Positions 1 to 14,477 of a stretch of 55,105 nt of DNA are shown in pieces. The notes below the pieces were generated by a model that saw nothing but the letters and a program-made list of their open reading frames with translations, made no database searches and had not been told where the DNA came from. Every line of letters begins with the position of its first letter. Positions within the stretch are counted from its first letter, which is position 1. The position numbers and the translations under genes are program-made. The stretch is from a virus, in the UHGV virus genome UHGV-0308106; one strand, 5' to 3'.

Positions 1-448
1 TGATACCTCTGTAACCACAATTTTGTTTAATTATCTCAACGTGCACATTTTCTGAACATACATGCGGCACGTGAATGTGTTAAACAATAGTAGATGACTT
101 TATCCGCAGTAATCAAAGGTTTTGAGTGAGCAACTCTGCGTCAGGAAAGGGCATTTTTCCTGAATATGCTCACATCATATAAAGAAATACAGATAAAGTT
201 ATTATCTGCTTGTGGGGGTGAATGCACTGACCGACCTATAAGGAAAGGCCAAACAAGAACACGGTTGCAAAAACCGTGCCCTTAAATATTGAATCTCTAT
301 TCAGAACACTTTCTTAAATTGTCATTTGGCATATTACGAACAATTCCGCGTAAAAACGTTCTGTTACGCTAAACCCTTATCCAGCAGGCTTTCAAGGATG
401 TAAACCATAACACTCTGCGAACTAGTGTTACATTGCGTGTAGCTTTGA

Positions 449-1699
449 GTGGGCAACTTTGTGTACACTTTTGTGTACCCAAAAACAAAAATGTGTACCC
501 ATTCAATGATCACCGACACAAAGCTCAGGAAGGCGCTCGGCAAGAAAAGAGATGATATCGAGATTATTTCTGATTCGCACGGGCTCAACGCCAGAATCAG
601 CCAGGCCGGAAAAATATCATTTTTCTATCGGTATCGCTGGGCCGGTAAAGCGGTAAAACTCAATGTTGGTGATTATCCTGCAATGAGTATCACCCAGGCA
701 AGAGAGCGTCGCCAACAATTCAGAAACTGGTTAACTGAGGGACTGGATCCGCGAGAGCAGGTGAAGCTGGATAAGCAGACCCGACAGGAAGCGATGTCCG
801 TTGCCGAAGCGTTCAATTACTGGATTGAAAGGCACTGTATCGCTAACGGGCTAGTTAAAGTCGATTACTATCGCCAGGTGTTTGAGAAACATATCGCCGA
901 ACCGATGAAGAATGTCAAAGTCGATAACACAGCGAAAATGCACTGGATCAACGTCTTCGATTCTATAGAAAGCAGGGTGATGGCTCATTACATGCTTTCG
1001 CTGTGCAAACGGGCGTTTAGGTTCTGCGTTAACAGAAGTGTGATCGCCTCAAACCCACTCGAGGGATTACTGCCATCTGATGTCGGGCAAAAGCCTAAAA
1101 AGAGAACTCGCAGGATGGACGATGACGATCTGCGCAAAATCTATCAGTGGTTGAAAAGCCATATGTCGATAGAGTCCGTTTTCCTGGTGAAATTTATTAT
1201 GCTTACCGGATGCCGTACGGCTGAGATTCGACTTAGTGAGAGATCATGGTTTCGATTGGATGATAATGAGTGGGTCGTGCCTGCGGGCAGTTATAAAACT
1301 CGGGTACATATTAGAAGGGGACTCTCAGACGCCGCCGTTAACCTGGTCAGAAATCACCTCAAGAAAATAAACACCAATCACCTGGTGACTTCACAACGTA
1401 AAATTGATGGCGGGATCAAAGATTCGCCCGTTCATTCACCTGTGGCATCCAATTACGCCCGTTCTATTTGGAATGGAACAGGTATGGCAGAGTGGTCGCT
1501 TCATGATATGAGGCGGACGATAGCCACAAATCTCTCTGAGTTAGGTTGCCCGCCGCACGTAATTGAAAAGCTGCTCGGGCATCAGATGGTGGGGGTTATG
1601 GCGCATTACAACCTTCATGACTATATCGATGATCAGAAACACTGGCTCCGCGTTTGGCAGAGCCATCTTGAAGAGATCATCGGAGAGCCCTTCAGTTAA
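449..1699 (+). CDS. int: tyrosine integrase (P4/Rac-type)
   Basis: 416-aa ORF; N-terminal [10 protein letters not shown] arm-binding-like segment; C-terminal RRTIATNL and LGHQ..MAHYNLH catalytic-type motifs; true start may be an internal ATG at 491 or 506. Confidence 0.85.
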
Positions 1700-1938
1700 T
1701 TTATCTTCTTTTTATCCTCCCACTCTTTGATTGACTCAGAGCGCCAGCGGTTAGGGTTGCCGGGCCAGTCAGGGGGTGGGAACGGGCATACGAAGCCCCG
1801 AGGCATTGTGTCTGCACTTTGCCATGACCAAAGGGTTTTGCGTGAAATTTTGTAGCGACTGGTCAGGTCTGACGTTACCAAAATATCATCCATAGCTCTC
1901 TCCAGTTGCCCGTTCGGGCCATTCAAAATCTTTTTCAA
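1696..1938 (-). CDS. small DNA-binding protein, excisionase/AlpA-like
   Basis: 80-aa ORF convergent on integrase stop (4-bp overlap); HTH-like [10 protein letters not shown] segment; position typical of xis. Confidence 0.45.
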
Positions 1939-2177
1939 CCAACCTGCCCGGGCAGGGAGCGGAGACGGCGCATGCCGGTCATCGCTGTGGCCACGTAGCT
2001 CGCCTTTCGGTTCACCACCTCCACCCAGACTTTCACGCCTTCAACCTTCACCGTATAAGTCTCTTTCATCTTGCTTCGCCCATAGTCGCCATATGTTTGC
2101 AAGTGAGCTGCCAGCGCGATGTCGCATGCTTGGCGAGCTAAAGGTGATTGCTTACTTCCTCGATTGATCAGTCGCAT
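1935..2177 (-). CDS. hypothetical small phage protein
   Basis: 80-aa ORF, 4-bp overlap with downstream gene, same leftward operon as recombination genes. Confidence 0.35.
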   Translation of the reverse strand: MRLINRGSKQSPLARQACDIALAAHLQTYGDYGRSKMKETYTVKVEGVKVWVEVVNRKASYVATAMTGMRRLRSLPGQVG

Positions 2178-2215
2178 ATAATCTCCTTGAGGGAGGGTTA
2201 CCCCTCCCGGTTTCG

Positions 2216-3334
2216 TCAGGCCACGTATTCCGGTTTCATATCCGCCAGGGTGATGCTGAATTGATCGTGCAGTTCATCGCCTAAGTGACGCTTTGAAGAT
2301 GCAAGCATGCGCTCGGCTTCAGCGAACCGTTCGGCTGCATGCGGCTCGTCGGGCTGGGGCAGGGATTTAATAGCCTCCTCAACCTTGTTGCGTGCATCCA
2401 CTAGGTAATAACGCTTTACGGCTTTGTTTTTCAGCTCGGTGAATAGTGCGGATCCCAGCGTAGCTTTCGCCGTTTCAATGTCGGCACGCAGCGATTTGGC
2501 GCTATCCACGTCCTGAGCAGATTCGATGCGTTCGCGGAAATCATCGGCAAGAGAGTCGACATTTACCGACGATTCCTGTGCGCTTTGCGTGGTTGTGACG
2601 GTGTCACCTGAGATATCAGCCAGGCTAACGCGTTGCGGCGTTGGGTTGATCTCTTTTTCTGTGCGCTGTTCAATCTCATCAGGGGTGTACACACCAAGAA
2701 CAACTGCAGGGCAATACAGGCGCGCCCAGTATTTGAGTGCCAGATAAGCGATCTGCTGTTTCGGGTTTGATACCCAAAGTGGAGAATTACGTGTGATTAC
2801 GCTGGAGAGGAAAACAGGCTCTCCCCAGGTGATATCACTTTCACCGCGAATAACGGCACCTACCCGTACCGACAGTCCTTGTTCATCAGCACTTTCCCAA
2901 CCGCGTACCATTTCTTTCTTGTCGTACGTCCCGCCACCTTTCGCAGGCTTTTTAACGGTTATCTCGCGGCTGCTGGCACATTTCGACCAGTCGCCCTCGT
3001 ACTCATAGTGAAAGCGGCCAACGATGGCGTTTGAGCTGGAGATCACCGCATTAACCAGTTGCGCTTCGTATCCCAGGACACCGTTAACCAGGTGCGTCTT
3101 TTGCGCCACGGCGTAAGGGTTCATACCCCACTGCATCGCCTGCATGATGATGGCCATGCAGTCTGCCGGATTGCCGCGGAGGTGCTCAGGCACCGTTACG
3201 GCTGCCTGTGCCATCAACCCGGCGACAGACTGAAGCTGGGTTAAAGCCTGCACGTTGAAAATGGCATTGCTGGCTGAGATCGTGTTTGGAGTCTGCTGTT
3301 CAGCGGTTACGATATTCGTGTTTTCCATCATCAT
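2216..3334 (-). CDS. single-strand annealing protein (Bet/RecT superfamily)
   Basis: 372-aa ORF immediately downstream of RecE-like gene; segment ADCMAIIMQAMQWGMNPY resembles the lambda Bet region DAQFIALLIVANQYGLNPW as recalled from memory. Confidence 0.65.
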   Translation of the reverse strand: MMMENTNIVTAEQQTPNTISASNAIFNVQALTQLQSVAGLMAQAAVTVPEHLRGNPADCMAIIMQAMQWGMNPYAVAQKTHLVNGVLGYEAQLVNAVISSSNAIVGRFHYEYEGDWSKCASSREITVKKPAKGGGTYDKKEMVRGWESADEQGLSVRVGAVIRGESDITWGEPVFLSSVITRNSPLWVSNPKQQIAYLALKYWARLYCPAVVLGVYTPDEIEQRTEKEINPTPQRVSLADISGDTVTTTQSAQESSVNVDSLADDFRERIESAQDVDSAKSLRADIETAKATLGSALFTELKNKAVKRYYLVDARNKVEEAIKSLPQPDEPHAAERFAEAERMLASSKRHLGDELHDQFSITLADMKPEYVA

Positions 3335-3339
3335 TCCCC

Positions 3340-6300
3340 TTATGCCTGAGTACGCAGCGCTTCAAGGCGGCGCAGGTCGAAGTCGTTCAGTTCGTCGGTG
3401 TAGTCAGCAGTGATTGGCGCTGGCCATTCACCTGTGTCGAATCCGGTTGCGATATTGCGCATCGCTTTGCGGTACTCGAGCATACCCAGCTCCAGTAGTT
3501 CAGCGGATGCCTCGATGATGGCGATCCAGTGGTAGTTCTCGTCTTTGTTGACGAAAATCCAGAAGAACTGATCCAGCGCTGCGGTTTCGCAGTACATAGC
3601 CGCGCTCAGGTGATAATCACGTTCAATAATTTCCCGGTGTAGCCTGGCGCGCAGGCTTTCCTGCTTAACATTCCACATGCTGATGGTTTTCAGGTCAGCA
3701 CCGATACGCACGCCGTCTAGGTCGATCTCAAGATCAGGGCGCACACGAACTTCCAGTCCCGTCTCCTCGTCAAAGCCAAAGTAGCTCACCTCAACGGCGC
3801 GGCTCGGGTGGGTTAGCAGCATGCCTGCGGTCGGGTGTGCCAGAAGCGCTTTTTGAATATTCAGCGCGGTGCTCAGCTGCTGGCGGGTGACCAGCACTTT
3901 TCCTTCCGGGTTATCGCGCCAGGCATCCAGCAGTTCGTCGGCAAATACGGCATCTGGTTTGACTGCCTTCACGGCCTGGATCATGTCTGCTTTGGTACCG
4001 GACACTTTCAGTGGTGCCGGTTTCTGTGCTTCCTGAGCCACAAGGTCAGGGTTGATGATTGCCAACTGCTCCAGCAGCGCGTCACGGCTGCCGCTGGTTT
4101 TAACCGGCGGCGGCAGGGTGGCGTTGTACTCTTTAATGCATGCCTTCATTGCCGTCGCCGTCTGCTTCTGGTCACCATCAATACGCTGGAAGTCAGCTGG
4201 CAGCGCCATATAGTTCTGTGCCGTTTCTTCCAGGTTAGCGCCAAGCGGAACCTGCGGCGGCAGGGTGGCGTTGTACTCTTCCAGTAACACCTTGATGTCG
4301 TCGGCAGACAGCAGCGCCGGCAGGCTGGCATTGTGCTCATCGATAAAGGCGCGCAGGGTCGCGGCCGTTGTGAATGCGCCTTCAGGGATCACCGGTTCAA
4401 CGCTGAATTCTGCGTCCAGTAGTTCAGGCTGCAACGCCAGCGCATGCACCAAGTTGCCCATGTCCAGCACCGCTGAGCGCTCTTTGACGATGGTTTTCTC
4501 TACGTGGCGCGCATTGAAGTACATCAGCGAAACGCGCGCATCTTTCACCTGGGTTGAGCTGATGCCGTTGGCGGCGTGGTAAACCTCGTTTGGCAGCCCT
4601 TCATAGCGGCCTGGCTCGAAATAAGCGGGATAAACAACAGCTGGTTCGTCAGATTGCGCTTCTGGCTCGGTTTGTGCTGCAACTGGTTCGGTTTGGCTTA
4701 CAGAATCGCTATTTTTGGCGACAGAATCCGTATTCTGGTTTACATCGTCCTTCTGGCTGGTATCTGACTCTTCACCAGACTCCAGACTGCTTTCGCCTGG
4801 CTGTACTTCATCACCAACATTTTTTTCATCACTGACAGTTTCTTGAACCTGCACATTGCTGGTGGTTTCCGTAGCCTGTTTCGTGCCATGAGTTGCTGAG
4901 TTCTGCAGTAAAGCCGTAACATCGAATATTCCGTTGCCGACATTTTTAACCAGTTCTTGTTCGGCTTTATGTGGTTGTGCTGTCGCTTCCTCTGCGCGGC
5001 GGCGTGCTTCTTCTTCACGTACGCGTTGCAGGTTCTCTTCGTGAGTGCAGAAGGATTTGCGCGGAGACTCCTTACCTTCAGGTTGGGGAATTTCCTGTGC
5101 TGCGGGTTCAGCCTCATGCAACGGCAATAACTCGACCGCGGAATTGAACGCGGCTGTCATGGTCTGGTTAACAAATTCCAGGTGAGCGACAGGAGTTAAA
5201 TGAATATTTTCCGGTGCGATACGTACCAGGTTAAAAATAGCCGTGCGGTTAACACCCAGAACGCCTGGCTGATTGCGCAGGATGTTGCTCCATGATTTCC
5301 ATGGTTCTTCTTTTTTGGTCACGATTTCTTTAGCGCGACGAAGAATGCTGCCCGGGATCTCGAAGTGGTTGAAGTCCATAGGCAGAAGGGCACATGCAAT
5401 CTCTAAATCGAGAGTGTCAAGGGTATGGTATGTATCAGGTCCACGGTCAGTGACGTAACCGCCGTTGGCATTGGTTCCGGAATCAGTACGCTGCACACTA
5501 CTGATGCGATTACCGGCGGCCCATTCGCGAACAAGGATACCGCGGTCGATGTGATCTGTAGCGAACCACAATTTCAAAAACTGGATTAAGGTTGCGAGTT
5601 CAGGGATTTTTCCATCGACAGGGAAGACTTTCTTAACGGCATTCACGACTTTATGAATATCGTGCTCAATGGCTTTTTTGAATGCTTCCACATTCTCAGC
5701 TGCCAGCAGCAGGTTCTGGACGTACGCGTCATCGGTGTCCATCTCAAGGCGGACAATCTCATTTTTCTGCCCTGCGTCGATGTGATAGAGATATTCACCA
5801 TCACCGATGAACTGAGCCAGTACGCGCTGGCGGAATGGCAGGGTGGCAACAACGATCAGGTTCGGTTGCTGTGTCTGCTGGGATTGCTCTTCGGTATCGA
5901 CTTCACCATCAACGACGCCACCTTCTGCCCGGCCGTTCTCGTCGGTCTGGATACCGTCCTCAACAGTGAGATCTTGACCAGTTGTAACGTCAGCAGCGTT
6001 GCTGGTTTCAGTTTTGAGCAACTGCAACTTACCACTGCGCCAGTCTTCTACCAGTTGATTGCGGTCACCGGCATCGGTGTTCACCCAGTCAGACATGAAT
6101 GCAGCGATCAATCTTGGTTCGTGCTCTTCGTCTGGTGTGAAAATGTCCTTAACCGCCCGAATCATTTTCCACTCAGCATTCAGGCTGAGTTTGGCGGTCG
6201 CGGGCACATCGTTCCTTGCCACAAGCAGGCTATGGAGATATGTATTGCCTTCATCCAGTGACATTTCGCTGGCAGCCAACTGCTGCTCTTTAGTGACGTG

Positions 6301-6729
6301 GGTTTGGTATTTATCGTTCATCAGATGGACGGCAAAGCGGACCGCTGGAGTACGGTTTTCAACCGGGACAATTTCGGACGCAGTCGCATCTTCAACGATT
6401 ACGGTCGGAGTAGGTGTGTAGGGGGCGTCAACGGAACCAGTAGACACACCAGCGGCTTTTGGCAGCCAGGTGCGCCCATCGTCCTGAAGCTCGTAGCGAT
6501 CACACCAGGTAAAATCAACTTCACCTTCTTTCGGCAGACCGTCGACAACTGGGAAATCAGTGCGAATCGGTTTGGCGTAGTCCTTACCCCGACCTGTTTC
6601 GATACCTGCATCTTCCAGCGCAACATCCAGCATCAGATTGGCGCGAGCCTCGGTTTTAGCAGTGAACCAGACCACTGCATCTTGCTTTCCGGATTTCTGA
6701 GTGGCTTTAACCACATTAAAGAATTCCAT
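3340..6729 (-). CDS. recE: RecE-like exodeoxyribonuclease VIII
   Basis: 1129-aa ORF; N-terminal TDFPVVDGLPKEGEVDFTW and GNRISSVQRTDSGTNANGG match my memory of E. coli RecE; long acidic low-complexity middle; C-terminal nuclease-like region; paired with annealing protein. Confidence 0.8.
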   Translation of the reverse strand: MEFFNVVKATQKSGKQDAVVWFTAKTEARANLMLDVALEDAGIETGRGKDYAKPIRTDFPVVDGLPKEGEVDFTWCDRYELQDDGRTWLPKAAGVSTGSVDAPYTPTPTVIVEDATASEIVPVENRTPAVRFAVHLMNDKYQTHVTKEQQLAASEMSLDEGNTYLHSLLVARNDVPATAKLSLNAEWKMIRAVKDIFTPDEEHEPRLIAAFMSDWVNTDAGDRNQLVEDWRSGKLQLLKTETSNAADVTTGQDLTVEDGIQTDENGRAEGGVVDGEVDTEEQSQQTQQPNLIVVATLPFRQRVLAQFIGDGEYLYHIDAGQKNEIVRLEMDTDDAYVQNLLLAAENVEAFKKAIEHDIHKVVNAVKKVFPVDGKIPELATLIQFLKLWFATDHIDRGILVREWAAGNRISSVQRTDSGTNANGGYVTDRGPDTYHTLDTLDLEIACALLPMDFNHFEIPGSILRRAKEIVTKKEEPWKSWSNILRNQPGVLGVNRTAIFNLVRIAPENIHLTPVAHLEFVNQTMTAAFNSAVELLPLHEAEPAAQEIPQPEGKESPRKSFCTHEENLQRVREEEARRRAEEATAQPHKAEQELVKNVGNGIFDVTALLQNSATHGTKQATETTSNVQVQETVSDEKNVGDEVQPGESSLESGEESDTSQKDDVNQNTDSVAKNSDSVSQTEPVAAQTEPEAQSDEPAVVYPAYFEPGRYEGLPNEVYHAANGISSTQVKDARVSLMYFNARHVEKTIVKERSAVLDMGNLVHALALQPELLDAEFSVEPVIPEGAFTTAATLRAFIDEHNASLPALLSADDIKVLLEEYNATLPPQVPLGANLEETAQNYMALPADFQRIDGDQKQTATAMKACIKEYNATLPPPVKTSGSRDALLEQLAIINPDLVAQEAQKPAPLKVSGTKADMIQAVKAVKPDAVFADELLDAWRDNPEGKVLVTRQQLSTALNIQKALLAHPTAGMLLTHPSRAVEVSYFGFDEETGLEVRVRPDLEIDLDGVRIGADLKTISMWNVKQESLRARLHREIIERDYHLSAAMYCETAALDQFFWIFVNKDENYHWIAIIEASAELLELGMLEYRKAMRNIATGFDTGEWPAPITADYTDELNDFDLRRLEALRTQA

Positions 6730-6868
6730 GTGAGATCCTCATTTTTGGGTGTTAGAATCCCCGGACCATTGATAGCGCCCATTGGGTTAACTTTGGTTTT
6801 AATGTTGTTTCCGGTGTAACTTTGGTCGGTACCACCGGACGTAGATCCCGCCTTGCGCGGGTTTTACG

Positions 6869-7030
6869 TTAGCCTTCGTGAGCCATCTGGTCGTGCGAAG
6901 CGCAACGTTTGGAGCAATACTCTTTTTCTTTGCGCGCCAGCTGTGAGCCGTTGCGATAGAGAAGGGTGCTCTTGATTACTTCCTCCGTTTTAACCGGCTT
7001 GCCGCAATATCCGCATTTCTTGTCTAACAT
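6869..7030 (-). CDS. small zinc-ribbon protein (YdaE-like by size and position)
   Basis: 53-aa ORF not in supplied track: MLDKKCGYCGKPV...YCSKRCASHDQMAHEG; CxxC plus CxxxC; GGAGG 5 nt upstream of ATG. Confidence 0.45.
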   Translation of the reverse strand: MLDKKCGYCGKPVKTEEVIKSTLLYRNGSQLARKEKEYCSKRCASHDQMAHEG

Positions 7031-7041
7031 GACATCCTCCG

Positions 7042-7248
7042 CTAGTGGCTGAGTCCATGCCCCAGACCGTTCAGATAAACTTCAACCAGCAAATCCTTGG
7101 TGTAAGTCATTTCTACGCCGCGATGCAGATACAAACGTCCGCGAGCGTTAGCTGATGCCGTCCAGGTTGAGTCTTTGTGTTTGACGAGCATCCCCGGCTG
7201 AACTGCGCCGCGGTTTACTGTCTGTGTACCGTAGTGCTGATGAACCAT
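7042..7248 (-). CDS. small protein at Kil position (function unknown)
   Basis: 68-aa product from internal ATG with GGAGA Shine-Dalgarno; the longer 116-aa track ORF (7042-7392) probably over-extends. Confidence 0.35.
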   Translation of the reverse strand: MVHQHYGTQTVNRGAVQPGMLVKHKDSTWTASANARGRLYLHRGVEMTYTKDLLVEVYLNGLGHGLSH

Positions 7249-7632
7249 GATGTTCTCCAGTTTTTCTGAGTGAACTTCGCTGGTGGTGCCGCGGCGCTGA
7301 TCTTCACGGTTGAGCGTTTTAACTCTGCAATTCACCACCGCGAAGCTCACTCTGTGCTTTGCCCTTGTCGCCAGGCTGGCGGAACGTTTCAAACCTACTG
7401 CGCGTTAATCTCACCACCTCATTCCGGTCTTCGTATGCCCCGGACGGCTTCTTCGTGGGCGTCCTGCTTTGGTGGTTGTGTTGATGGAGTAATTAAACAC
7501 AATGTTTATTTGCGTGTCAACATAATGAGTGTTTTTATATAAACAAAAAGTTTAGTTGGTTGCGCTCGTTGGCACGAGTAGTATGTTTTATGGTCTATTT
7601 TGTGGTTATAAAAAAATCGATGAGGGTGAGTT

Positions 7633-7839
7633 ATGGATCGTGACGAACTGGAAGAAGACCGCGCAGCGTTTATTGCGGGGGAGATTGGTGGCGCAGTTGT
7701 CAGTCTGATAGCTAACGGGATTGTGATCAGCCGCGATGCGATTGTGGATAGTCTAGAGGCTAAGCGCAGGGTAGTGGGAAACGTCATTCACAAGTGGGTA
7801 TTGCGGGATGCGGTTGCTATGGTGAGAAAAGGGCAATAA
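7633..7839 (+). CDS. hypothetical protein
   Basis: 68-aa ORF followed directly by a hairpin terminator. Confidence 0.35.
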   Translation: MDRDELEEDRAAFIAGEIGGAVVSLIANGIVISRDAIVDSLEAKRRVVGNVIHKWVLRDAVAMVRKGQ

Positions 7840-7874
7840 AAAACCCAGTTCGGTAACTGGGTTATTGCTTTATT
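7838..7874. terminator. bidirectional intrinsic terminator
   Basis: 9-bp stem aacccagtt/aactgggtt with 4-nt loop, A-run on one side and T-rich tract on the other, between convergent genes. Confidence 0.5.
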
Positions 7875-8328
7875 CAACAGATGATGGGGGGGTCGGTGCT
7901 TTCTTAAAGATCGACCACTGAGAAATGTAGGTCAGCAACCTTGAGCTTAACTCGAGTTCTTTTCGTAATATTTCGTCATAACGTTTTTTTGCTGCTTGCA
8001 TGGTCGCATCACTAGCGTGATTGTCATCCATAATGATCTTTAGCCTTTTCTTTTCTCGGCTTGAGCATATTGTAAATAACAGACCTGTAAATGACATTCC
8101 ACCAAAATCCTTTAACGTTTTGATTACAAAAAGAAGAATCAAAGACAGAAAAGGAACAGATCTGTAGGCCCAATCACGAAACTCACCGTCAGGAAAGAAG
8201 ATAGGAATAGCATCTGTAGCATAACCACATATGAGGGAGACAATTAGAAAAGGTAGTCCATTTTTAGCTACATTTTTAACGTTATCGTTAGCCATGATTT
8301 TTTCCCGAGAACGATTTCGAGTCAACAT
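7870..8328 (-). CDS. membrane protein, possible superinfection-exclusion component
   Basis: 152-aa ORF with hydrophobic helices, AT-rich; in operon downstream of repressor; start may be ATG at 8295. Confidence 0.45.
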   Translation of the reverse strand: MLTRNRSREKIMANDNVKNVAKNGLPFLIVSLICGYATDAIPIFFPDGEFRDWAYRSVPFLSLILLFVIKTLKDFGGMSFTGLLFTICSSREKKRLKIIMDDNHASDATMQAAKKRYDEILRKELELSSRLLTYISQWSIFKKAPTPPSSVE

Positions 8329-8671
8329 GTAACTTTTGTGTTTTGACTACATAATACGCAAATCCAATCTTAACTAACCAATAAGCTACTGGTATGAGTG
8401 CTGCGTAAAGAGGGATATAGTACATAACCTTACCTCCTGTTAACCACACTATAACACCTAGCATCACTATTAGCGCGACAGAAAATGCTTTCAGCCCAAC
8501 ACAGCTATCAGGATGTGAAACACTGTTCCTTAGCAACAATATCCTGGATTCATCAAGTGTGTAAGGAATATCGCCAACATGATTTTCGATTTTTGGGAAG
8601 GTCTCAAATACTTCAACCCGATCAATCGAAATAATTGAGCTTGATTGATGATCTAAGCAAACTGCAGCCAC
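8288..8671 (-). CDS. membrane protein, possible superinfection-exclusion component
   Basis: 127-aa ORF with two hydrophobic helices; AT-rich; immediately upstream of 7870-8328 gene. Confidence 0.45.
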   Translation of the reverse strand: MAAVCLDHQSSSIISIDRVEVFETFPKIENHVGDIPYTLDESRILLLRNSVSHPDSCVGLKAFSVALIVMLGVIVWLTGGKVMYYIPLYAALIPVAYWLVKIGFAYYVVKTQKLHVDSKSFSGKNHG

Positions 8672-8673
8672 TG

Positions 8674-9009
8674 TTATCCCTCTCGAACCTTTAGTGATAC
8701 TCGGTTAGCAGCAAATGTGGCAATGAAACCACATTCTACACATATAACAGGGAATGCCCATATACCTCGGCCAGCTGAATGAGGTAGAGGAAGGGTAATT
8801 ATTGCAGGATAGTCTTGACTATCTTCTCGTGGAGGAACTCCCCAAAGCGTATGCTTACAAAGCGGACAGGCCATCTCGCCATGTTTTTCTTCGAGGCGTT
8901 GAAAATAATCTCGAAATTCTTGTCTTGATATTGATAGCGTCAATGCTGTTGTATTGACACTTTCCTGACTTTTTTCTTCTTCAACCTGTTCGCCCATCTC
9001 AGCTCTCAA
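8674..9009 (-). CDS. hypothetical Cys-pair protein
   Basis: 111-aa ORF with CPLCKH and CVECG pairs; first gene after repressor on the same strand. Confidence 0.4.
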   Translation of the reverse strand: MRAEMGEQVEEEKSQESVNTTALTLSISRQEFRDYFQRLEEKHGEMACPLCKHTLWGVPPREDSQDYPAIITLPLPHSAGRGIWAFPVICVECGFIATFAANRVSLKVREG

Positions 9010-9108
9010 TATAATGATAATTAACTGGTAAGTGAATTTTGCATATCGTTAAGATGTATCCCATTGGTACAGAAACATCTGAGGGGTAAGTAGCTTTTAA
9101 CTACCGTG

Positions 9109-9504
9109 CTACTCACCATCCCCCTTAATCCGCCGTCCCATGTACTTGGCGTACAGTTCATCGAGTTCTTTCAACCGTAGAGATACGATCCGCAACATGT
9201 TCTGTTGTTCTTCTTCGTTTGGGAGTTGATTATAGAGTTCCAACAGTCTCCGTTCGTCGTGTCTCAAACCGTCCTTAGCATCCACGTCCTGACCTAGAAC
9301 CCACTCAAGACTTACGCCTAGCGCATCGGCAAGTTTTATTGCTGAGCTTTTTCCTATCGCTCCTCTGACAAACCAGTTGTTGACTGATTGTGCGCTCACA
9401 CCACAGATTCTCGCTATATCCGCTTTGGATATGCGCTTCTTCTCGATGATTTCATTTAACCGCCGAACCTGCGGGTTATCTGTTTGGTGTGTGTTTTTTC
9501 TCAT
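9109..9504 (-). CDS. prophage repressor (HTH, CI/RacR-like role)
   Basis: 131-aa ORF; N-terminal HTH ISKADIARICGVSAQSVNNW; divergent from Cro-like gene across operator palindromes. Confidence 0.65.
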   Translation of the reverse strand: MRKNTHQTDNPQVRRLNEIIEKKRISKADIARICGVSAQSVNNWFVRGAIGKSSAIKLADALGVSLEWVLGQDVDAKDGLRHDERRLLELYNQLPNEEEQQNMLRIVSLRLKELDELYAKYMGRRIKGDGE

Positions 9505-9518
9505 ATATCAAGATTCTA

Positions 9519-9580
9519 AACTAAAAGTTTATCGCCTCAACATTCATAATGTTGACTTGAACATAAACATAATGTTTAAT
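9519..9580. promoter_or_regulatory. operator/promoter region between repressor and cro-like gene
   Basis: Three palindromes: aaact-aaa-agttt (9519-9531), aacatt-cat-aatgtt (9539-9553), aaacat-a-atgttt (9565-9577); TTGACT -35 at 9552-9557 and TTTAAT -10 at 9575-9580 with 17-bp spacing. Confidence 0.55.
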
Positions 9581-9607
9581 TTGGTTCGTTATTACTTGGA
9601 GCCAAAT

Positions 9608-9841
9608 ATGAAAGCACTTGATAAAGCAATATGCATCGTAGGGGGTGCAACCCGTTTAGCAGAAAAGCTCAATGTATCCCCAATGACGGTCAGTCACTGG
9701 CGTCACCGTGACAATGGATTCGTACCGGCTAACCGTGTCATTCCTATTTTCAATGCTACAGGTGTAACTCCACATGAGTTACGCCCTGATTTGTACCTCA
9801 ACCCTACGGATGGATTACCGGCTCAGGAAGCGAGGGCATAA
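9608..9841 (+). CDS. Cro/YdaS-like HTH regulator
   Basis: 77-aa product MKALDKAICIVGGATRLAEKLNVSPMTVSHW; GGAG SD; track ORF 9377 start is over-extended. Confidence 0.7.
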   Translation: MKALDKAICIVGGATRLAEKLNVSPMTVSHWRHRDNGFVPANRVIPIFNATGVTPHELRPDLYLNPTDGLPAQEARA

Positions 9842-9843
9842 CC

Positions 9844-10383
9844 ATGCAGTCACTATCACTTCATCAAAATAGCGGATATCAAACGGCTGCGATGATAAAT
9901 CGCAATCAACCTGTCTCGGTAGATAAACATGACCAGATCCGCGATGCCGTTCGTGCGTGGGCGGGTGTAGATGGTCAGGATGTCGTTTCTGCTCTGATCA
10001 TCGAAGAGTACCAGGCTCAAGGGGGAGACGAGATCACTTTCCCTGATGACCTCAGCCGACAGCGTCAGAAGCTTTTCCGCTTTCTGGATAACCATTTCAA
10101 CAGCGAACGGTACCGCGAAAACGTTCGCCAGCTGACTCCGGCAATCCTCGCTGTCCTGCCGATTGAATACCGCAATCGTCTGCTACCAGAAGACAACGTA
10201 ATGGCTCGTCTGGCAAGGCTGGAGAAGGAAACCAGCGAAGCGAAGATTGCTGTCGCAATGGATGCGCCACGTCATCAGAAGCTGAAAGAGTTGAGCGAGG
10301 GGATCGTGGAGATGTATCGCGTTGACCCTGGGTTAACCGGTCCGTTGATGGAAATGGTGCAGATTATGCTGGGGGCTATATGA
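9844..10383 (+). CDS. YdaT-like regulatory protein
   Basis: 179-aa ORF; IIEEYQAQGG and LTPAILAVLPIEYRNRL resemble my memory of Rac YdaT; sits at CII position. Confidence 0.6.
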   Translation: MQSLSLHQNSGYQTAAMINRNQPVSVDKHDQIRDAVRAWAGVDGQDVVSALIIEEYQAQGGDEITFPDDLSRQRQKLFRFLDNHFNSERYRENVRQLTPAILAVLPIEYRNRLLPEDNVMARLARLEKETSEAKIAVAMDAPRHQKLKELSEGIVEMYRVDPGLTGPLMEMVQIMLGAI

Positions 10384-10467
10384 CCGGTTCAAAAATGGCG
10401 AAAGCCGCGGTGCTCGAACACCAACGGCTTTCAGGTGCAAAAACAGTGCGTAATTGCGGAGAACAGT

Positions 10468-11376
10468 ATGTCAAACACCGCTGAAATAATCAATTTCCCA
10501 AATAAAACCGAACAACCGGGAGGTCGTATGGCCGACCTGTCGAACGGGTATACCAAGGTCGCTAACGAGATCCAACAGCTTAAGCCTCGCCTGAGACTGT
10601 CAGGCCGGGAATGGCAATGTTTTGAGGCGGTGATCTGGCTTACCTACGGCTGGAACAAGAAACAGGACCGCGTGACAAATACGGTTATTGCCGAGCTTAC
10701 GGGCCTGAGCGATACGCATGTATCGGACGCGCTTAAGTCTCTCGCAGAACGCAAAATCATCTTTTCACAGAAGCAGGGCATGATGAAAATCGTCGGTGTA
10801 AACACTGACCTTTCAGCATGGATTTTAGACAAACCGGAAACGGGAAGAAAATTCCCGAAAACGGGAAAATCCTTCCCGAAATCAGGAATAACCTTCCCGA
10901 AAACGGTAGACACCCAATACAAGAACAAGAACAGTATTAAAAGATCTTCGTCCGAGAATTCTGACGAATCCTCTGACGCACGTCTGAAGAAATTTTTATC
11001 AACTCATCCTGAAGCTGCGGTCTACACACCATCCGGTGCGAAGTGGGGCTCTGCTGAAGACCTCGAGACAGCTAAGTGGATTTCCTCCAGGGTGAAGCTG
11101 ATTAACCCAACCTGCAAAGCCCCGGACATGACCTCCTGGTCTAACACTGTTCGCCTGATGCGCCAGATAGACGACCGGTCGCACCAGGACATCTGCGCGC
11201 TGTATGACTGGGCTAGCAAACACCACTTCTGGCAGACCAACATCCTGAGTCCCGAAAGCCTGCGTAAGCAGTGGGACAAGCTGACAATGCAGCGTAACGC
11301 CGGAGGTGAGCAGCGCGCTGTCAAGCCAGATCTGGACTTCAACAACACTGACTGGGCCTATGGGGTGATCCGATGA
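10468..11376 (+). CDS. replication initiation protein (lambda O-like)
   Basis: About 302-aa from ATG with GGAG SD; N-terminal O-like domain (REWQCFEAVIWLTYGW); iterons embedded mid-gene; 4-bp overlap with P-like gene. Confidence 0.8.
   Translation: MSNTAEIINFPNKTEQPGGRMADLSNGYTKVANEIQQLKPRLRLSGREWQCFEAVIWLTYGWNKKQDRVTNTVIAELTGLSDTHVSDALKSLAERKIIFSQKQGMMKIVGVNTDLSAWILDKPETGRKFPKTGKSFPKSGITFPKTVDTQYKNKNSIKRSSSENSDESSDARLKKFLSTHPEAAVYTPSGAKWGSAEDLETAKWISSRVKLINPTCKAPDMTSWSNTVRLMRQIDDRSHQDICALYDWASKHHFWQTNILSPESLRKQWDKLTMQRNAGGEQRAVKPDLDFNNTDWAYGVIR
10831..10910 (+). repeat. origin iterons inside O-like gene
   Basis: About four direct repeats of roughly 20 bp with core TCCCGAAAACGGGAA (units starting near 10834, 10852, 10873, 10893), encoding the repeated KFPKTGKSFPKSGITFPKT peptide. 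Confidence 0.6.
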
Positions 11377-12062
11377 AATCTCTTGCAGAGCAGATGCGTA
11401 ACCACGACCGCGAGCAGATGAGCCGCATGGCCCATAACCTGCCAGAGCAGTACCAGGAGTGCGCGCCGGTCGAGCAGGTGGCGCAGGTATTCAACAAGCT
11501 GTTCAACGAGCTGCGCGCCGCGTTCCCGGCCAGCATGGCGAACTTCCGCACCCAGGAAGACCTGAACGAATTCCGCCGTCAGTGGCTGCTGGCGTTTCAG
11601 GAGAACGGGATCCACACCATGGCTCAGGTCGATGCCGGCATGCGCATTGCCCGCCGCCAGGAGCGCCCATTCCTGCCGTCGCCGGGCCAGTTCGTCGCCT
11701 GGTGCAAGCAGAGCGGCGGCGCGCTGGGCGTCAACGTTGACCAGGTGATCGCCGAATACTGGGACTGGCGTAACCGCTCGTTCGAATTCATCTCCAGCGA
11801 GCAATTTCCATGGTCGCAGCCGGTCATGTACCACATTTGCGTAGAATTGCGCCACCGCAGCACCGAGCGCCAGTTAACGCATGGTGAACTGGCACGCGAG
11901 GCAGGCGATCTGCTGGACATGTGGGAAAGGCGCGTCACCGAGGGTAAGCCAGTGCCGCCGGTACGCCGGGCTATTGCCGCACCAGCTGCCGAGCAAGGGC
12001 CGACGCCGATCCAGCTGCTGCTGGCCAAGTACAACCGCAACAAGTCGAACGGGATGGTGTGA
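11373..12062 (+). CDS. P: replication protein P-like helicase loader
   Basis: 229-aa ORF; near-collinear similarity to lambda P as recalled (REQMSRMAHNLPEQY, RPFLPSPGQFVAWC). Confidence 0.85.
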   Translation: MKSLAEQMRNHDREQMSRMAHNLPEQYQECAPVEQVAQVFNKLFNELRAAFPASMANFRTQEDLNEFRRQWLLAFQENGIHTMAQVDAGMRIARRQERPFLPSPGQFVAWCKQSGGALGVNVDQVIAEYWDWRNRSFEFISSEQFPWSQPVMYHICVELRHRSTERQLTHGELAREAGDLLDMWERRVTEGKPVPPVRRAIAAPAAEQGPTPIQLLLAKYNRNKSNGMV

Positions 12063-12063
12063 C

Positions 12064-12303
12064 ATGAACATAACAATCCGTGAGCAGGTGCTGGCAGCCC
12101 TGCGCAACAACCCAGGGTTGAACAACGCCAAACTGGCAGGGCTTCCCGGAGTGGTACATCATCGATCAGGACTATCGGGGGCAGAAGTACGCGAAGGACA
12201 AGCAGGTTGCGCGTTGTGGCAACGCAGTTCCGCCGCCATTCGCCGAGGCACTGGTGAGGGCTAATTTACCGGAGCTTTGTCAGCAGAAAGAGATCGCAGC
12301 TTA
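12064..12303 (+). pseudogene. DNA methyltransferase remnant (frame-disrupted)
   Basis: ATG at 12064 opens frame MNITIREQVLAAL; a different frame carries the C-terminal tail ARCGNAVPPPFAEALVRANLPELCQQKEIAA ending at 12303; no intact long ORF. Confidence 0.3.
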
Positions 12304-12403
12304 ATGTCCGAGTTTCAGAACATGGTGTAACAAATCCTGCTACTTCAATGACGTAGATTCAAACCTGATATAATTAGGCTCTTCACAACACGAGGAGCCT
12401 AAA

Positions 12404-12640
12404 ATGCACCATTACATGATCCCTATCAACGGAACTGTTCACCTGATCAAGACTGACTCTCTAATCCCTGAAGGGACTGAGTATAGCTTTGAAGGAGAAA
12501 GTCTAATCTGCGCTCATGCCACTTTTAAATCTGGGACGTATGGCTTCCTGATACCAAAGGGAAATCAGTTGAATAGAGAGCATGCGTTCTGGCATGTAAG
12601 TGGAATTCACCCTAATCCCCTGGGAATGGATAAATCGTAA
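12404..12640 (+). CDS. hypothetical protein (moron)
   Basis: 78-aa ORF in AT-rich insert; AGGAGCC SD and TATAAT-like element upstream; flanked by duplicated methyltransferase 3-prime ends. Confidence 0.4.
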   Translation: MHHYMIPINGTVHLIKTDSLIPEGTEYSFEGESLICAHATFKSGTYGFLIPKGNQLNREHAFWHVSGIHPNPLGMDKS

Positions 12641-12910
12641 TCCATAATATGCATGCCATCGTCCTGAACATACGGTGGCATGCATCCGGCACTACAACAG
12701 AAACGTTAAAGTGCAAACAATACAATTCGAGCAATATTCAACCTGTCACAGATGGCGAATACCACCGCCATTTCGTGCATTCTGTGGTTTCTATTACCCA
12801 TTGCGTTAATGCTGTCCAATCATCAGCTCGCTGAGGCGCTGGTTAGGGCTAACCTACAGGAGCTTTGTCAGCAGAAACAAATAGCGGCGTAATAAAACAT
12901 CGCTAATTCA

Positions 12911-12938
12911 ACCCGCTACGGCGGGTTTTCTTTTTTTA
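12911..12938 (+). terminator. intrinsic terminator
   Basis: acccgc-tacg-gcgggt hairpin followed by ttttcttttttt. Confidence 0.6.
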
Positions 12939-12996
12939 CTACTGACAGAAAATTAACAATTTGTGCTCTTAAAGCGTTGATCATTTCCGCGCATAG

Positions 12997-13019
12997 GTAT
13001 ACTGTATAAAAACACAGTA
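12997..13019 (+). promoter_or_regulatory. LexA box overlapping -10 of dinI promoter
   Basis: TACTGTATAAAAACACAGTA (13000-13019) fits CTGT-N8-ACAG; TATACT -10 at 12997-13002. Confidence 0.7.
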
Positions 13020-13037
13020 AATGCAATGGGGGCCATT

Positions 13038-13271
13038 ATGAAAGTTGAATTAACCATTGATCGCATGAAAGAACTTCCTAAAGGCGCAGTACCAGCACTG
13101 GAGAAAGAACTGCTTAAGCGCCTGAATGATCACTATGACAATTGCAGGCTCACAATCCGCCGTGCCGGGGCCGATGGGTTAAGTGTTTTTGGTGGTGACA
13201 AGGACGATAAAAAGAAAATTGAATCAATCCTCCAGGATACCTGGGAAAGCGCTGACGACTGGTTTTATTAG
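13038..13271 (+). CDS. dinI: DinI-family damage-inducible protein
   Basis: MKVELTIDRMKELPKGAV...ILQDTWESADDWFY, DinI-like throughout; alternative start 13026. Confidence 0.85.
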   Translation: MKVELTIDRMKELPKGAVPALEKELLKRLNDHYDNCRLTIRRAGADGLSVFGGDKDDKKKIESILQDTWESADDWFY

Positions 13272-13388
13272 AATTGCGCTTAAGGCTGGCGCGCATTTTT
13301 CAGAATACCGCAATTTGCGTAACCCTCTGATGCTGCTGCCGACAATCTTTAATCGCGTCTGTTAGTCGCTCGAAGGGAGAACATAAAT

Positions 13389-13637
13389 GTGAGTGATTCA
13401 GCTTTGCAAACGTCAGAAGACAACTGGTATGACATTGTAAGAAGGTCTGACGGCTGCGTGGTGTTTAGCTTTCCTTCATCGGGCAGGCATCTAATTTATC
13501 GCGTCAATGGCATGGTTTCTATGCGGCCTTTGCTGGATGATGAAGAGGTCTTTACTCCTAATGGTTTTATGCAGTTTATTCACCGTCTCGGCTACCGGGT
13601 AACCCCACCTTCTGATAATATGAAATCAACGGTCTGA
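13389..13637 (+). CDS. hypothetical protein
   Basis: 82-aa ORF, GTG start. Confidence 0.35.
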   Translation: MSDSALQTSEDNWYDIVRRSDGCVVFSFPSSGRHLIYRVNGMVSMRPLLDDEEVFTPNGFMQFIHRLGYRVTPPSDNMKSTV

Positions 13638-13671
13638 ACAACCGTAACCTACTGCGCCACGGAGAGAAACC

Positions 13672-14271
13672 ATGGCGCACGAACTACAACTCATCAAGCA
13701 TTCCTCAGGAATCCTGATCCCCGCTACGCCGGAGACCAGTGATTTACTGCAATCAAAAATCAAACTCGGCTCCGTACTGGTGGCTGAGTTCCGGCAGGTA
13801 CGCAACCCGGCCTTTCACCGTCGTTTCTTCGCGTTACTCAATCTCGGTTTCGAATACTGGGAACCCACCGGCGGGGCAATCTCCTCCAACGAACGCAAGC
13901 TGGTAACCGGCTATGCCAAGTTCCTTGCCTCATTCGCGGGAAGTGAAGCAGCACTCCTGGATGCTGCTGAGCAATATCTGGACCGCATCGCCGATAAGCG
14001 TACTGGTAGCATCTGCGCCTGTAAGTCATTCGATGCATATCGTGCATGGGTCACTATTGAGTCCGGCCATTACGACGCCATTCAGCTGCCTGACGGCACC
14101 CTCCGCAAACATCCCCGCAGTATCTCATTCGCAAATATGGATGAAACTGAGTTCCAGCAGCTGTACAAAGCCGCGCTCGATGTTCTGTGGCGATGGATAC
14201 TCTCCCGATCATTTCGCAGTTGTGAAGAGGCAGAAAACGCCGCCGCCCAGCTGATGAGCTTTGCGGGGTGA
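13672..14271 (+). CDS. nin-region protein (DUF1367/YbcN-like)
   Basis: 199-aa ORF; motif RNPAFHRRFFALLNLGFEYWEP; position upstream of ybcO-like and rusA. Confidence 0.45.
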   Translation: MAHELQLIKHSSGILIPATPETSDLLQSKIKLGSVLVAEFRQVRNPAFHRRFFALLNLGFEYWEPTGGAISSNERKLVTGYAKFLASFAGSEAALLDAAEQYLDRIADKRTGSICACKSFDAYRAWVTIESGHYDAIQLPDGTLRKHPRSISFANMDETEFQQLYKAALDVLWRWILSRSFRSCEEAENAAAQLMSFAG

Positions 14272-14477
14272 TGGCGATGAAATTTTCCTGGTTCCACCAT
14301 CACGAATGCACCACCGAACAGGCCGACGAGCTGGTGGAGAAATACCGGGCGCGCGGTGTAAAGACAGAGCGCAGCCTGAATCGCGACAACATCACCTGGA
14401 CCGTCAGCGCGCAATTGCCGGAAGGCGATAACGCGCCTCGCCCGAGCCGGGTATGGCAAAGCAAGGCGTGGGGGTGA
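14268..14477 (+). CDS. hypothetical nin-region protein
   Basis: 69-aa ORF, ATGA overlap with upstream gene. Confidence 0.35.
   Translation: MMAMKFSWFHHHECTTEQADELVEKYRARGVKTERSLNRDNITWTVSAQLPEGDNAPRPSRVWQSKAWG

Follow-up and report, generated by a model that had tools for sequence, protein, structure and literature searches.

Of all known sites of prophage exclusion systems, the interval between the repressor gene and the leftward promoter pL is the oldest; it houses the rexAB genes of phage lambda. These are arranged in the order cI-rexA-rexB-OL and encode a DNA-binding protein of 279 amino acids (RexA) and a protein of 144 amino acids with four transmembrane (TM) helices (RexB). The repressor-pL locus is now recognised as a variable defence slot, most occupants of which are uncharacterised. 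In published work, the sequence that follows cI is called a mosaic or variable defence locus, occupied by RexAB, BstA and HigBAC (PMC8585504; bioRxiv 10.1101/2024.02.24.581848). BstA is encoded by Salmonella BTP1 and HigBAC, a toxin-antitoxin-chaperone system, by a prophage of E. coli NT1F31; RexAB-like pairs are present in Pseudomonas putida P1 and in the mycobacteriophages Sbash, CarolAnn and Butters (PMC8585504; PMC12894663; bioRxiv 10.1101/2024.02.24.581848). Several systems of this group consist of a cytosolic trigger and a membrane effector.

The cassette described here, A-B-C, occupies the corresponding position in a Rac-like lambdoid prophage. It is a compact candidate (1.1 kb, three small proteins) that has no detectable relatives among known systems. 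Repressor-linked prophage exclusion cassettes as such are already known; what is new is the A-B-C composition. The cassette is a well-defined and cheaply testable candidate rather than a demonstrated mechanism, and a function deduced from a place in a defence hotspot is guilt by association, as such slots also carry genes of other roles.

Similar to rexAB, the A-B-C genes lie on the repressor strand, directly downstream of the repressor gene and before the leftward early promoter region, and they end at a terminator. Lysogenic co-transcription with the repressor is presumed for A-B-C as well, and both systems combine a cytosolic component with a small polytopic inner-membrane protein, C having 141 amino acids as compared to the 144 of RexB. 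Unlike the two-gene RexAB system, the cassette has three genes. Protein A is a zinc ribbon of 107 amino acids, whereas RexA is a much larger DNA-binding protein, and C has two or three TM helices followed by a soluble helical tail, whereas RexB has four TM helices. Sequence similarity to RexAB is not supported for A, B or C. Profile comparison of C with RexB gave an hhalign E-value of 0.056, yet 8.7% of locally shuffled RexB sequences scored as high, and homology was likewise not supported for B and RexB (E = 0.36) and for the A family and RexA (E = 0.17 over 15 columns); no Rex family of Pfam or PHROG matched A, B or C. With BstA, HigBAC and the RexAB-like pairs the cassette has in common that they are prophage-encoded, located behind a repressor, exchanged as cassettes and composed of several components. 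It shows no homology to these systems (PADLOC, Pfam, NCBIfam), and their anti-phage phenotypes have been demonstrated, whereas that of A-B-C is putative.

Gene content and boundaries of the locus

The window, i.e. the whole stretch of 55,105 nucleotides of viral DNA that was analysed, carries in its left part the Rac-like prophage, the host of which is E. coli. The features of the immunity region are collected in Table 1. The repressor is the first gene of the leftward lysogenic transcription unit. A domain search found no S24 peptidase domain in this protein of 131 amino acids, and at the DNA level its gene is 83% identical to one annotated as 'CI transcriptional regulator' in a Klebsiella phage. 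Rightward of cro follow ydaT and then the replication genes O and P.

Table 1. Features of the immunity region and adjoining early genes; positions are those of the window.
Feature	Position	Strand	Remarks
recE	3340-6729	minus	
YdaE-family gene (ydaE)	6869-7030	minus	
kil	inside 7042-7392	minus	Kil-type septation inhibitor
Palindrome copy, 3 mismatches	7518-7534		overlaps leftward TTGACA-17 nt-TTTAAT element (7520-7492); upstream of kil, ydaE and recE
Small gene, 68 aa	7633-7839	plus	convergent with A-B-C; phrog_3975
Bidirectional intrinsic terminator	7842-7863	both	9-bp stem AACCCAGTT-cggt-AACTGGGTT; T-rich tails on either strand
Gene C	7870-8295	minus	141 aa, membrane protein, ATG start
Gene B	8288-8671	minus	127 aa, membrane protein, GTG start
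Gene A	8674-8997	minus	107 aa, cytosolic, 4-Cys zinc ribbon
Repressor-A spacer	8998-9108	minus	111 nt, part of the swappable cassette
Prophage repressor	9109-9504	minus	131 aa, RacR-like, HTH_3 / Phage_CI_repr
17-bp perfect palindrome, CAACATTATGAATGTTG	9538-9554		repressor/cro spacer; candidate operator
cro	9605-9841	plus	YdaS-type, divergent from repressor

The cassette fills the whole interval from the repressor stop codon (9109) to the terminator. The original prediction, made from the letters of the window, had placed three leftward genes on the repressor strand at 7870-9009, and the ORF map agrees with these outer coordinates. Of the predicted gene lengths, the 127 amino acids of B stand; the values for A (111) and C (152) have to be replaced by 107 and 141, the calls made for all three genes in the RefSeq/PGAP annotation of an identical prophage and the lengths with which the homologues of A and C agree. 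Protein A most likely starts at ATG 8997, the alternative TTG 9009 giving the form of 111 amino acids, and for C the start is most likely ATG 8295 and not the in-frame ATG 8328, from which 152 amino acids would be translated. The three genes are tightly packed: the stop codon of A and the start of B are separated by 2 nt, with GAGGGA preceding the B start, and the ATG of C overlaps the stop codon of B (ATGGCTAA).

On the minus strand of the spacer between repressor and A, a terminator scan detected no terminator-like hairpin, and the spacer RNA is not unusually stable (fold z-score -0.46). One weak promoter-like match is present (9036-9008, 9 of 12 positions). The spacer is poorly conserved among relatives, in some of which it is as short as 31-44 nt, and gaps of this size imply co-transcription of A with the repressor. 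At the other end, the hairpin scored as terminator-like on both strands and closes the A-B-C operon, as had been proposed for it, as well as the convergent 68-aa gene. The predicted AT-richness of the block was also borne out, its GC content being 0.402 as compared to 0.519 in the window as a whole. For segments of this length the block marks the GC minimum of the 55 kb; a value as low occurs in only 0.5% of them, and every one of these overlaps the block.

The slot behind the repressor

Wherever a locus included upstream sequence, A-B-C was found to follow immediately after a phage repressor gene of the same orientation. The repressors in this position have at least 10 different sequences and comprise short RacR-like helix-turn-helix (HTH) proteins and S24/LexA-like CI proteins, and A-B-C is thus mobile between immunity regions. 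The limits of the exchanged segment are visible in comparison with sister E. coli prophages. The flanks are 97-99% identical; homology is lost within the terminator, at position 7846, and is regained one base beyond the stop codon of the repressor gene, at 9110. These breaks define a swappable slot, exactly this interval having been exchanged.

Other gene sets were found in the same slot. Locus L002 has a soluble protein of 149 amino acids together with a protein of 136 amino acids that has a coiled coil and a C-terminal TM helix. In L003 and L046 a protein of 101 amino acids is accompanied by one of about 215 amino acids with a coiled coil and a TM helix, and L045 carries YoaK, HicA, HicB and a protein of 141 amino acids, with HicA and HicB confirmed by Pfam. 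In strain WEM25, the identical slot holds a cassette of HicA/HicB and one further gene. The comparison with the position of rex, which had been drawn earlier, is therefore correct and stronger than could be seen from the window: the slot lies between the repressor and the leftward early operon (kil, ydaE, recE), it has sharp swap boundaries, and it corresponds to a published defence locus.

Two palindromic elements bear on the position of the operators. The perfect palindrome between the repressor gene and cro is a candidate operator, and an imperfect copy is located on the far side of the cassette (Table 1). The palindrome scan returned three matches vs 0.27 expected, two of the three being one palindrome read on both strands. 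The promoter-like element overlapping the imperfect copy was not listed by the promoter scan. The assignment of 7518-7534 as a candidate OL/pL, with which the cassette would be flanked by the repressor gene and OL, the arrangement known from lambda, is suggestive only.

Conservation of the cassette and the family of protein A

Word-seeded searches in 5.8 billion clusters gave 6 clusters for A, 13 for B and 17 for C; only Enterobacteriaceae were represented among them. Genomic contexts were obtained from public assemblies, the GenBank phage PHB10 and IMG/VR. The window and each of the 27 retrieved loci with B or C, which come from E. coli, Klebsiella, Cedecea and IMG/VR phages, have the order A-B-C, and the tight coupling is retained in the relatives, with a 2-nt gap between A and B and an overlap of B and C. 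Across genera the three proteins show 47-75% identity with invariant motifs. Pairwise dN/dS values are about 0.1-0.25 for all three genes, ratios that are rough because dS (>1.3) is near saturation. The genes are under purifying selection, and A-B-C is a genuine, conserved, rare and uncharacterised cassette. An interpretation of the ORFs as fortuitous, or as degenerating remnants in AT-rich spacer DNA, could point to the lack of an annotated family and to one rare frameshifted allele (P0013), but is refuted by the identity between genera, the dN/dS values and the order and coupling kept in 27 loci. The suggestion that the ORFs of 127 and 152 amino acids might be a single frameshifted gene did not hold either: in all relatives B and C are distinct genes that overlap briefly, the sole fused form being the rare allele P0013, in which two A-runs carry frameshifts through either decay or a homopolymer sequencing error.

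Among 5,426 complete E. coli genomes, 5 carry the cassette; it is absent from 72,556 plasmids, and no homologue of B was found in 185,579 GTDB species-representative genomes. Every homologue that was recovered lies in a prophage or phage and none on a plasmid or in the unrelated non-phage contexts that the original prediction had set against an exclusion role; nearly all are directly behind a repressor. Low GC content, rarity and absence from plasmids fit a horizontally exchanged phage accessory gene set (moron).

Searches in Pfam and NCBIfam gave no significant match for A, B or C and revealed no toxin, antitoxin, chaperone or HTH domain. PADLOC-DB v2.0.0 (library of 2023) contained no family matching A, B or C at E ≤ 1. 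In the PHROG scan C had no match and B matched only phrog_21392, a family of unknown function, with E = 0.04. That the three genes belong to no recognised family, as stated beforehand, agrees with these searches. The RefSeq entries for the three proteins are WP_124062403, WP_000741698 and WP_032169905. A literature search with the RefSeq/GenBank accessions of the proteins found no mention of them, and the main text of the DefensePredictor paper contains no recognisable match to the cassette.

The AlphaFold2 model of protein A (pLDDT 72) has an acidic N-terminus of low confidence, a helix at residues 25-39 and then a beta-sheet bearing the zinc ribbon. The two CxxC pairs are C44/C47 and C86/C89; all four cysteines are invariant in an alignment of 39 diverse relatives, and W80 and P70 are conserved in at least 90% of these. 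An exhaustive profile search in 1.84 billion representatives (E ≤ 1e-3) yielded an A family of 46 cluster representatives, nearly all of about 100 amino acids. The two long proteins among the 46 are P0051 (751 amino acids) and P0079 (1,980 amino acids), the former probably a spurious match since it is a plant-type multicystatin. Members of the family have a length of ca. 100 amino acids, the CxxC...CxxC arrangement and the conserved W and P, and they head cassettes of two to three genes. The last 25 residues of A match PHROG 4293 (E = 4e-7); it is the C-terminal end of this PHROG that aligns with the CxxC/beta-strand region of A and also with that of the distant A' proteins (E = 6e-5). The match covers ca. 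25-30 residues only and the PHROG is a family of unknown function, so no mechanism is gained from it. The alignment A14, representing one sub-branch of the A family, found no relative in the 185,579 GTDB species-representative genomes, and P0042 as query gave no match in viral contigs. Fold searches with A returned nothing above noise; weak generic structural matches were to TFIIS, InsA and MqsA.

Zinc-ribbon proteins often bind nucleic acid. This property, the weak structural matches just named and the invariable linkage of A-B-C to repressor genes of many types would suit a role in lysogenic conversion or prophage physiology, for example by modulation of induction or of the lysis-lysogeny switch, by an effect on envelope stress or host fitness, or by a membrane sensor connected to the repressor circuit. 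The cassette accompanies both cleavable S24-type and short non-cleavable repressors, however, and with such mechanistically different proteins upstream it is unlikely to have one specific regulatory partner. The cassette is moreover missing altogether from sister prophages that share the repressor, and it has no HTH or known regulatory domain. Even though RexA of lambda is reported to influence the switch (PMC12894663), we give such a physiological role a slim chance.

The proteins of the A family head three types of cassette, most of which are located directly after repressors. In type (i), A is followed by the two membrane proteins B and C. Type (ii) consists of A and one protein of 151-156 amino acids with an N-terminal domain containing the motif I(I/L)EN.DG, a single TM helix and a coiled coil. 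In loci L041, L042 and L049 such pairs lie directly behind S24-type cI genes, and a high-GC phage (L040) has a pair resembling type (ii) that has no adjoining repressor. The IEN.DG motif is collinear in the N-terminal domains of B and the type (ii) protein; the hhalign E-value of 0.13 is not significant, and homology of B to this single-pass partner is not claimed. In type (iii), found in Yersinia phage vB_YenM_30.14 and in IMG/VR contigs, A' is combined with two small soluble proteins, the second of which (C') has a WHYH...HY...HPPF motif and corresponds to phrog_5954. This type is located behind a repressor in L012, L017, L018 and L047, and not in L016. Identification of C' as a YafO-like toxin was rejected, BLASTP, hhalign and a PDB profile search all being negative. 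By eye, the gene after A usually opens with a short hydrophobic-acidic peptide (MAAVCLD, MIAIAVDF, MSIAIAAAD).

The modular zinc-ribbon first gene is the most original feature of the cassette, and defence systems are typically modular in this way. It is possible, if doubtful, that the A-family zinc ribbons represent an unrecognised modular class of repressor-linked prophage immunity systems. In such a class a small sensor or adaptor would be combined with interchangeable effector sets, i.e. two polytopic membrane proteins, a single-pass coiled-coil protein, or a soluble pair with a conserved His-rich motif, and the A-B-C version would cause abortive infection at the membrane in a Rex-like manner, through three components without sequence relationship to RexAB.

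The soluble A'-B'-C' cassettes resemble a regulator/antitoxin/toxin triplet, and this is one of the observations that would fit a tripartite toxin-antitoxin or addiction module. In a prophage-stabilising or selfish module of this kind, one of the membrane proteins would be the toxin, the other or A the antidote, and A a zinc-ribbon autoregulator, any anti-phage activity being absent or incidental. HicA/HicB with a third gene occupy the same slot in a sister prophage, and the small A-B-C genes are tightly coupled translationally. Similar to tripartite toxin-antitoxin systems (paaR2-paaA2-parE2, TAC, and HicAB with accessory genes), the cassette consists of three small, translationally coupled prophage genes; unlike these, it has no recognisable toxin, antitoxin or chaperone domain in Pfam or NCBIfam, and two of its three products are membrane proteins. 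A YafO-like identity of C' is not supported, as noted above. Although a tripartite module, HigBAC, is known at the locus (bioRxiv 10.1101/2024.02.24.581848), we regard a toxin-antitoxin role of A-B-C as unlikely. Since HigBAC at this locus does defend against phage (bioRxiv 10.1101/2024.02.24.581848), such a role would overlap with the exclusion or abortive-infection function discussed below and does not exclude it.

Possible function of the cassette

The effector part of the cassette would be formed by the membrane proteins. Protein B has an N-terminal region of about 55 residues with an invariant P..IEN..GD motif, followed by a TM hairpin. AlphaFold2 places the helical hairpin at residues 58-77 and 82-112 and models the N-terminal domain with low confidence. 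The second TM helix (GGKVMYYIPLY..L.P..YW..KI) is the best-conserved segment of the protein. Protein C has TM1 at about residues 14-34, TM2 at about 46-61 and a short hydrophobic segment at 66-77, and thus two or three TM segments; the C-terminal half downstream of these is basic and helical, and the tail is rich in Pro.

By analogy to the described systems, A-B-C may be a lysogen-expressed Rex-like exclusion or abortive-infection module of new composition, the reading that we favour and to which we assign a probability of roughly 45%. It starts from the position of the cassette, the co-inheritance of three genes, purifying selection, the restriction to prophages, the swap boundaries and the modular use of A. 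More specifically, it is suggested by a cytosolic protein A that is co-inherited with two membrane proteins, by translational coupling, by a position behind the most active lysogenic promoter region, by a slot that also houses exclusion and toxin-antitoxin systems, and by the reuse of A with other partners. A-B-C would then be a self-contained accessory operon in the 'rex slot' of the prophage. Its transcription in the lysogen would occur by read-through from the repressor promoter, possibly with a contribution of its own weak promoter, and stop at the bidirectional terminator. The zinc-ribbon protein A would act as the cytosolic sensing or regulatory subunit and may bind to B at its N-terminal domain in the cytoplasm, which bears the IEN motif. 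Proteins B and C together may form the inner-membrane effector, either as a pore or depolarising complex or as an effector with its gatekeeper. A superinfecting phage would trigger the system, upon which membrane energetics would collapse and the infection would be aborted. The logic is likened to that of RexA/RexB, in which a cytosolic protein is combined with a membrane protein (PMC12894663).

If exclusion is the true function, the cassette would bring a new family of sensors and new membrane effectors into the abortive-infection repertoire. Being small and tractable, it would also serve as a model for the way in which a cytosolic trigger causes a membrane effector to open, a question left by RexAB for decades. 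If A-B-C has no role in defence, it would be a counter-example to guilt-by-location reasoning at this hotspot.

The properties of B and C also bear on superinfection exclusion at the stage of DNA entry, as known for P22 SieA, T4 Imm and HK97 gp15. In that case B and C would block injection without killing the cell, and A would be an assembly factor or regulator. Two small inner-membrane proteins from a lysogenic operon that is prophage-restricted and repressor-adjacent are consistent with such a role, but known injection blockers are usually single membrane proteins. Protein A is cytosolic, and in the A'-B'-C' cassettes A' is accompanied by soluble proteins only, which argues for sensing or action in the cytoplasm. 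Neither B nor C has PHROG membership in the SieA/SieB, Imm, HK97 gp15 or Cor families, and we consider entry exclusion not very probable. An identity of the membrane proteins as holin and antiholin finds no holin match in Pfam or PHROG. The block is located in the immunity region and not in a lysis cassette; the related prophage has its genes for holin and lysozyme some 9 kb further right.

Variants of the A-B-C block and other cassettes in the slot

Sister Rac-like E. coli prophages carry other cassettes in the slot between the repressor stop codon and the bidirectional terminator. Two of these alternative types consist of a small soluble protein and a coiled-coil protein with a C-terminal TM segment, and such pairs give weak PHROG matches of the XhlA-, hemolysin- or holin-like kind. 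The third type combines YoaK, HicA, HicB and a soluble protein of 141 amino acids, and is possibly a tripartite HicAB system. In some prophages the YoaK-family gene, which encodes a small membrane protein of 32 amino acids, accompanies HicAB in E. coli and the A-B-C block (zinc-ribbon protein A, membrane proteins B and C) in Cedecea; its presence beside both suggests that it is a second, tiny exchangeable element within the slot.

Proteins of the A family also occur with other partners. In a two-gene variant, the single partner is composed of an N-domain bearing the motif I(I/L)EN.DG, one TM helix and a coiled coil. Three enterobacterial phage contigs have this variant immediately behind an S24-type cI gene, whereas a similar pair in a high-GC phage (L040) is preceded by two lipoprotein-like genes, not by a repressor. 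Zinc-ribbon proteins from a distant branch of this family (A') are encoded by the first gene of a cassette with two soluble proteins, the acidic B' (89-105 amino acids) and C' (124-135 amino acids), the latter matching phrog_5954 and containing the invariant motif WHYH..G...HY...DYHPPF. The A'-B'-C' arrangement looks like a regulator/antitoxin/toxin triplet. A suspected similarity of C' to YafO was without support.

Coordinates of the cassettes, genes and sequence elements discussed
Feature	Location	Strand	Remarks
Alternative slot cassettes	L002 3365-4227; L003 3358-4322; L046 3005-3951; L045 2565-3954		sister Rac-like E. coli prophages
YoaK-family gene	L007 5307-5405; L045 3856-3954		between repressor and cassette
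Two-gene A-family cassettes	L041 3465-4252; L042 3453-4273; L049 973-1748; L040 3501-4306		
A'-B'-C' cassettes	L012 3980-4979; L017 3998-4961; L016 2626-3589; L013 1-1024; L047 3001-3951		
68-aa gene	window 7633-7839	+	convergent on block; phrog_3975, E = 1e-33 (family of unknown function)
Homologue of 68-aa gene	L041 4275-4541	-	
A-run, B/C junction	window 8288-8300		GGGAAAAAATCATGG; hit in P0013
A-run (A7) inside C	window ~7985-7995		hit in P0013
17-bp palindrome, perfect	window 9538-9554		CAACATTATGAATGTTG; repressor/cro spacer
3-mismatch copy of CAACATTATGAATGTTG	window 7518-7534		upstream of kil-recE operon
Replication gene O	window 10468-11376		

The convergent gene and candidate operators

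The bidirectional terminator is common to the block and to a convergent gene encoding a protein of 68 amino acids with a hydrophobic centre. This gene lies roughly where sieB does in K-12 Rac; a homologue also adjoins the two-gene cassette of L041. GC skew is unusually strong (+0.4) across window 7450-7900. The two palindromes are candidate operators of the RacR-like repressor, the perfect one as OR and the mismatched copy as OL.

A frameshifted allele and prophage mosaicism

In the ENA allele P0013, represented by 6 member sequences, frameshifts in two A homopolymers join the C-terminus of B to C and shorten C. Gene decay, slippage resembling phase variation and sequencing error are all possible explanations.

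The match between the window and the EC17CM13 prophage, which is inserted between kch and yciI, is limited to the left 14.4 kb (1-14428, 99.2% identity) and does not extend into 14429-55105. The late region differs; by this sequence comparison the window prophage is a mosaic. Gene O is intact in the window, whereas in EC17CM13 an internal stop makes it a pseudogene.
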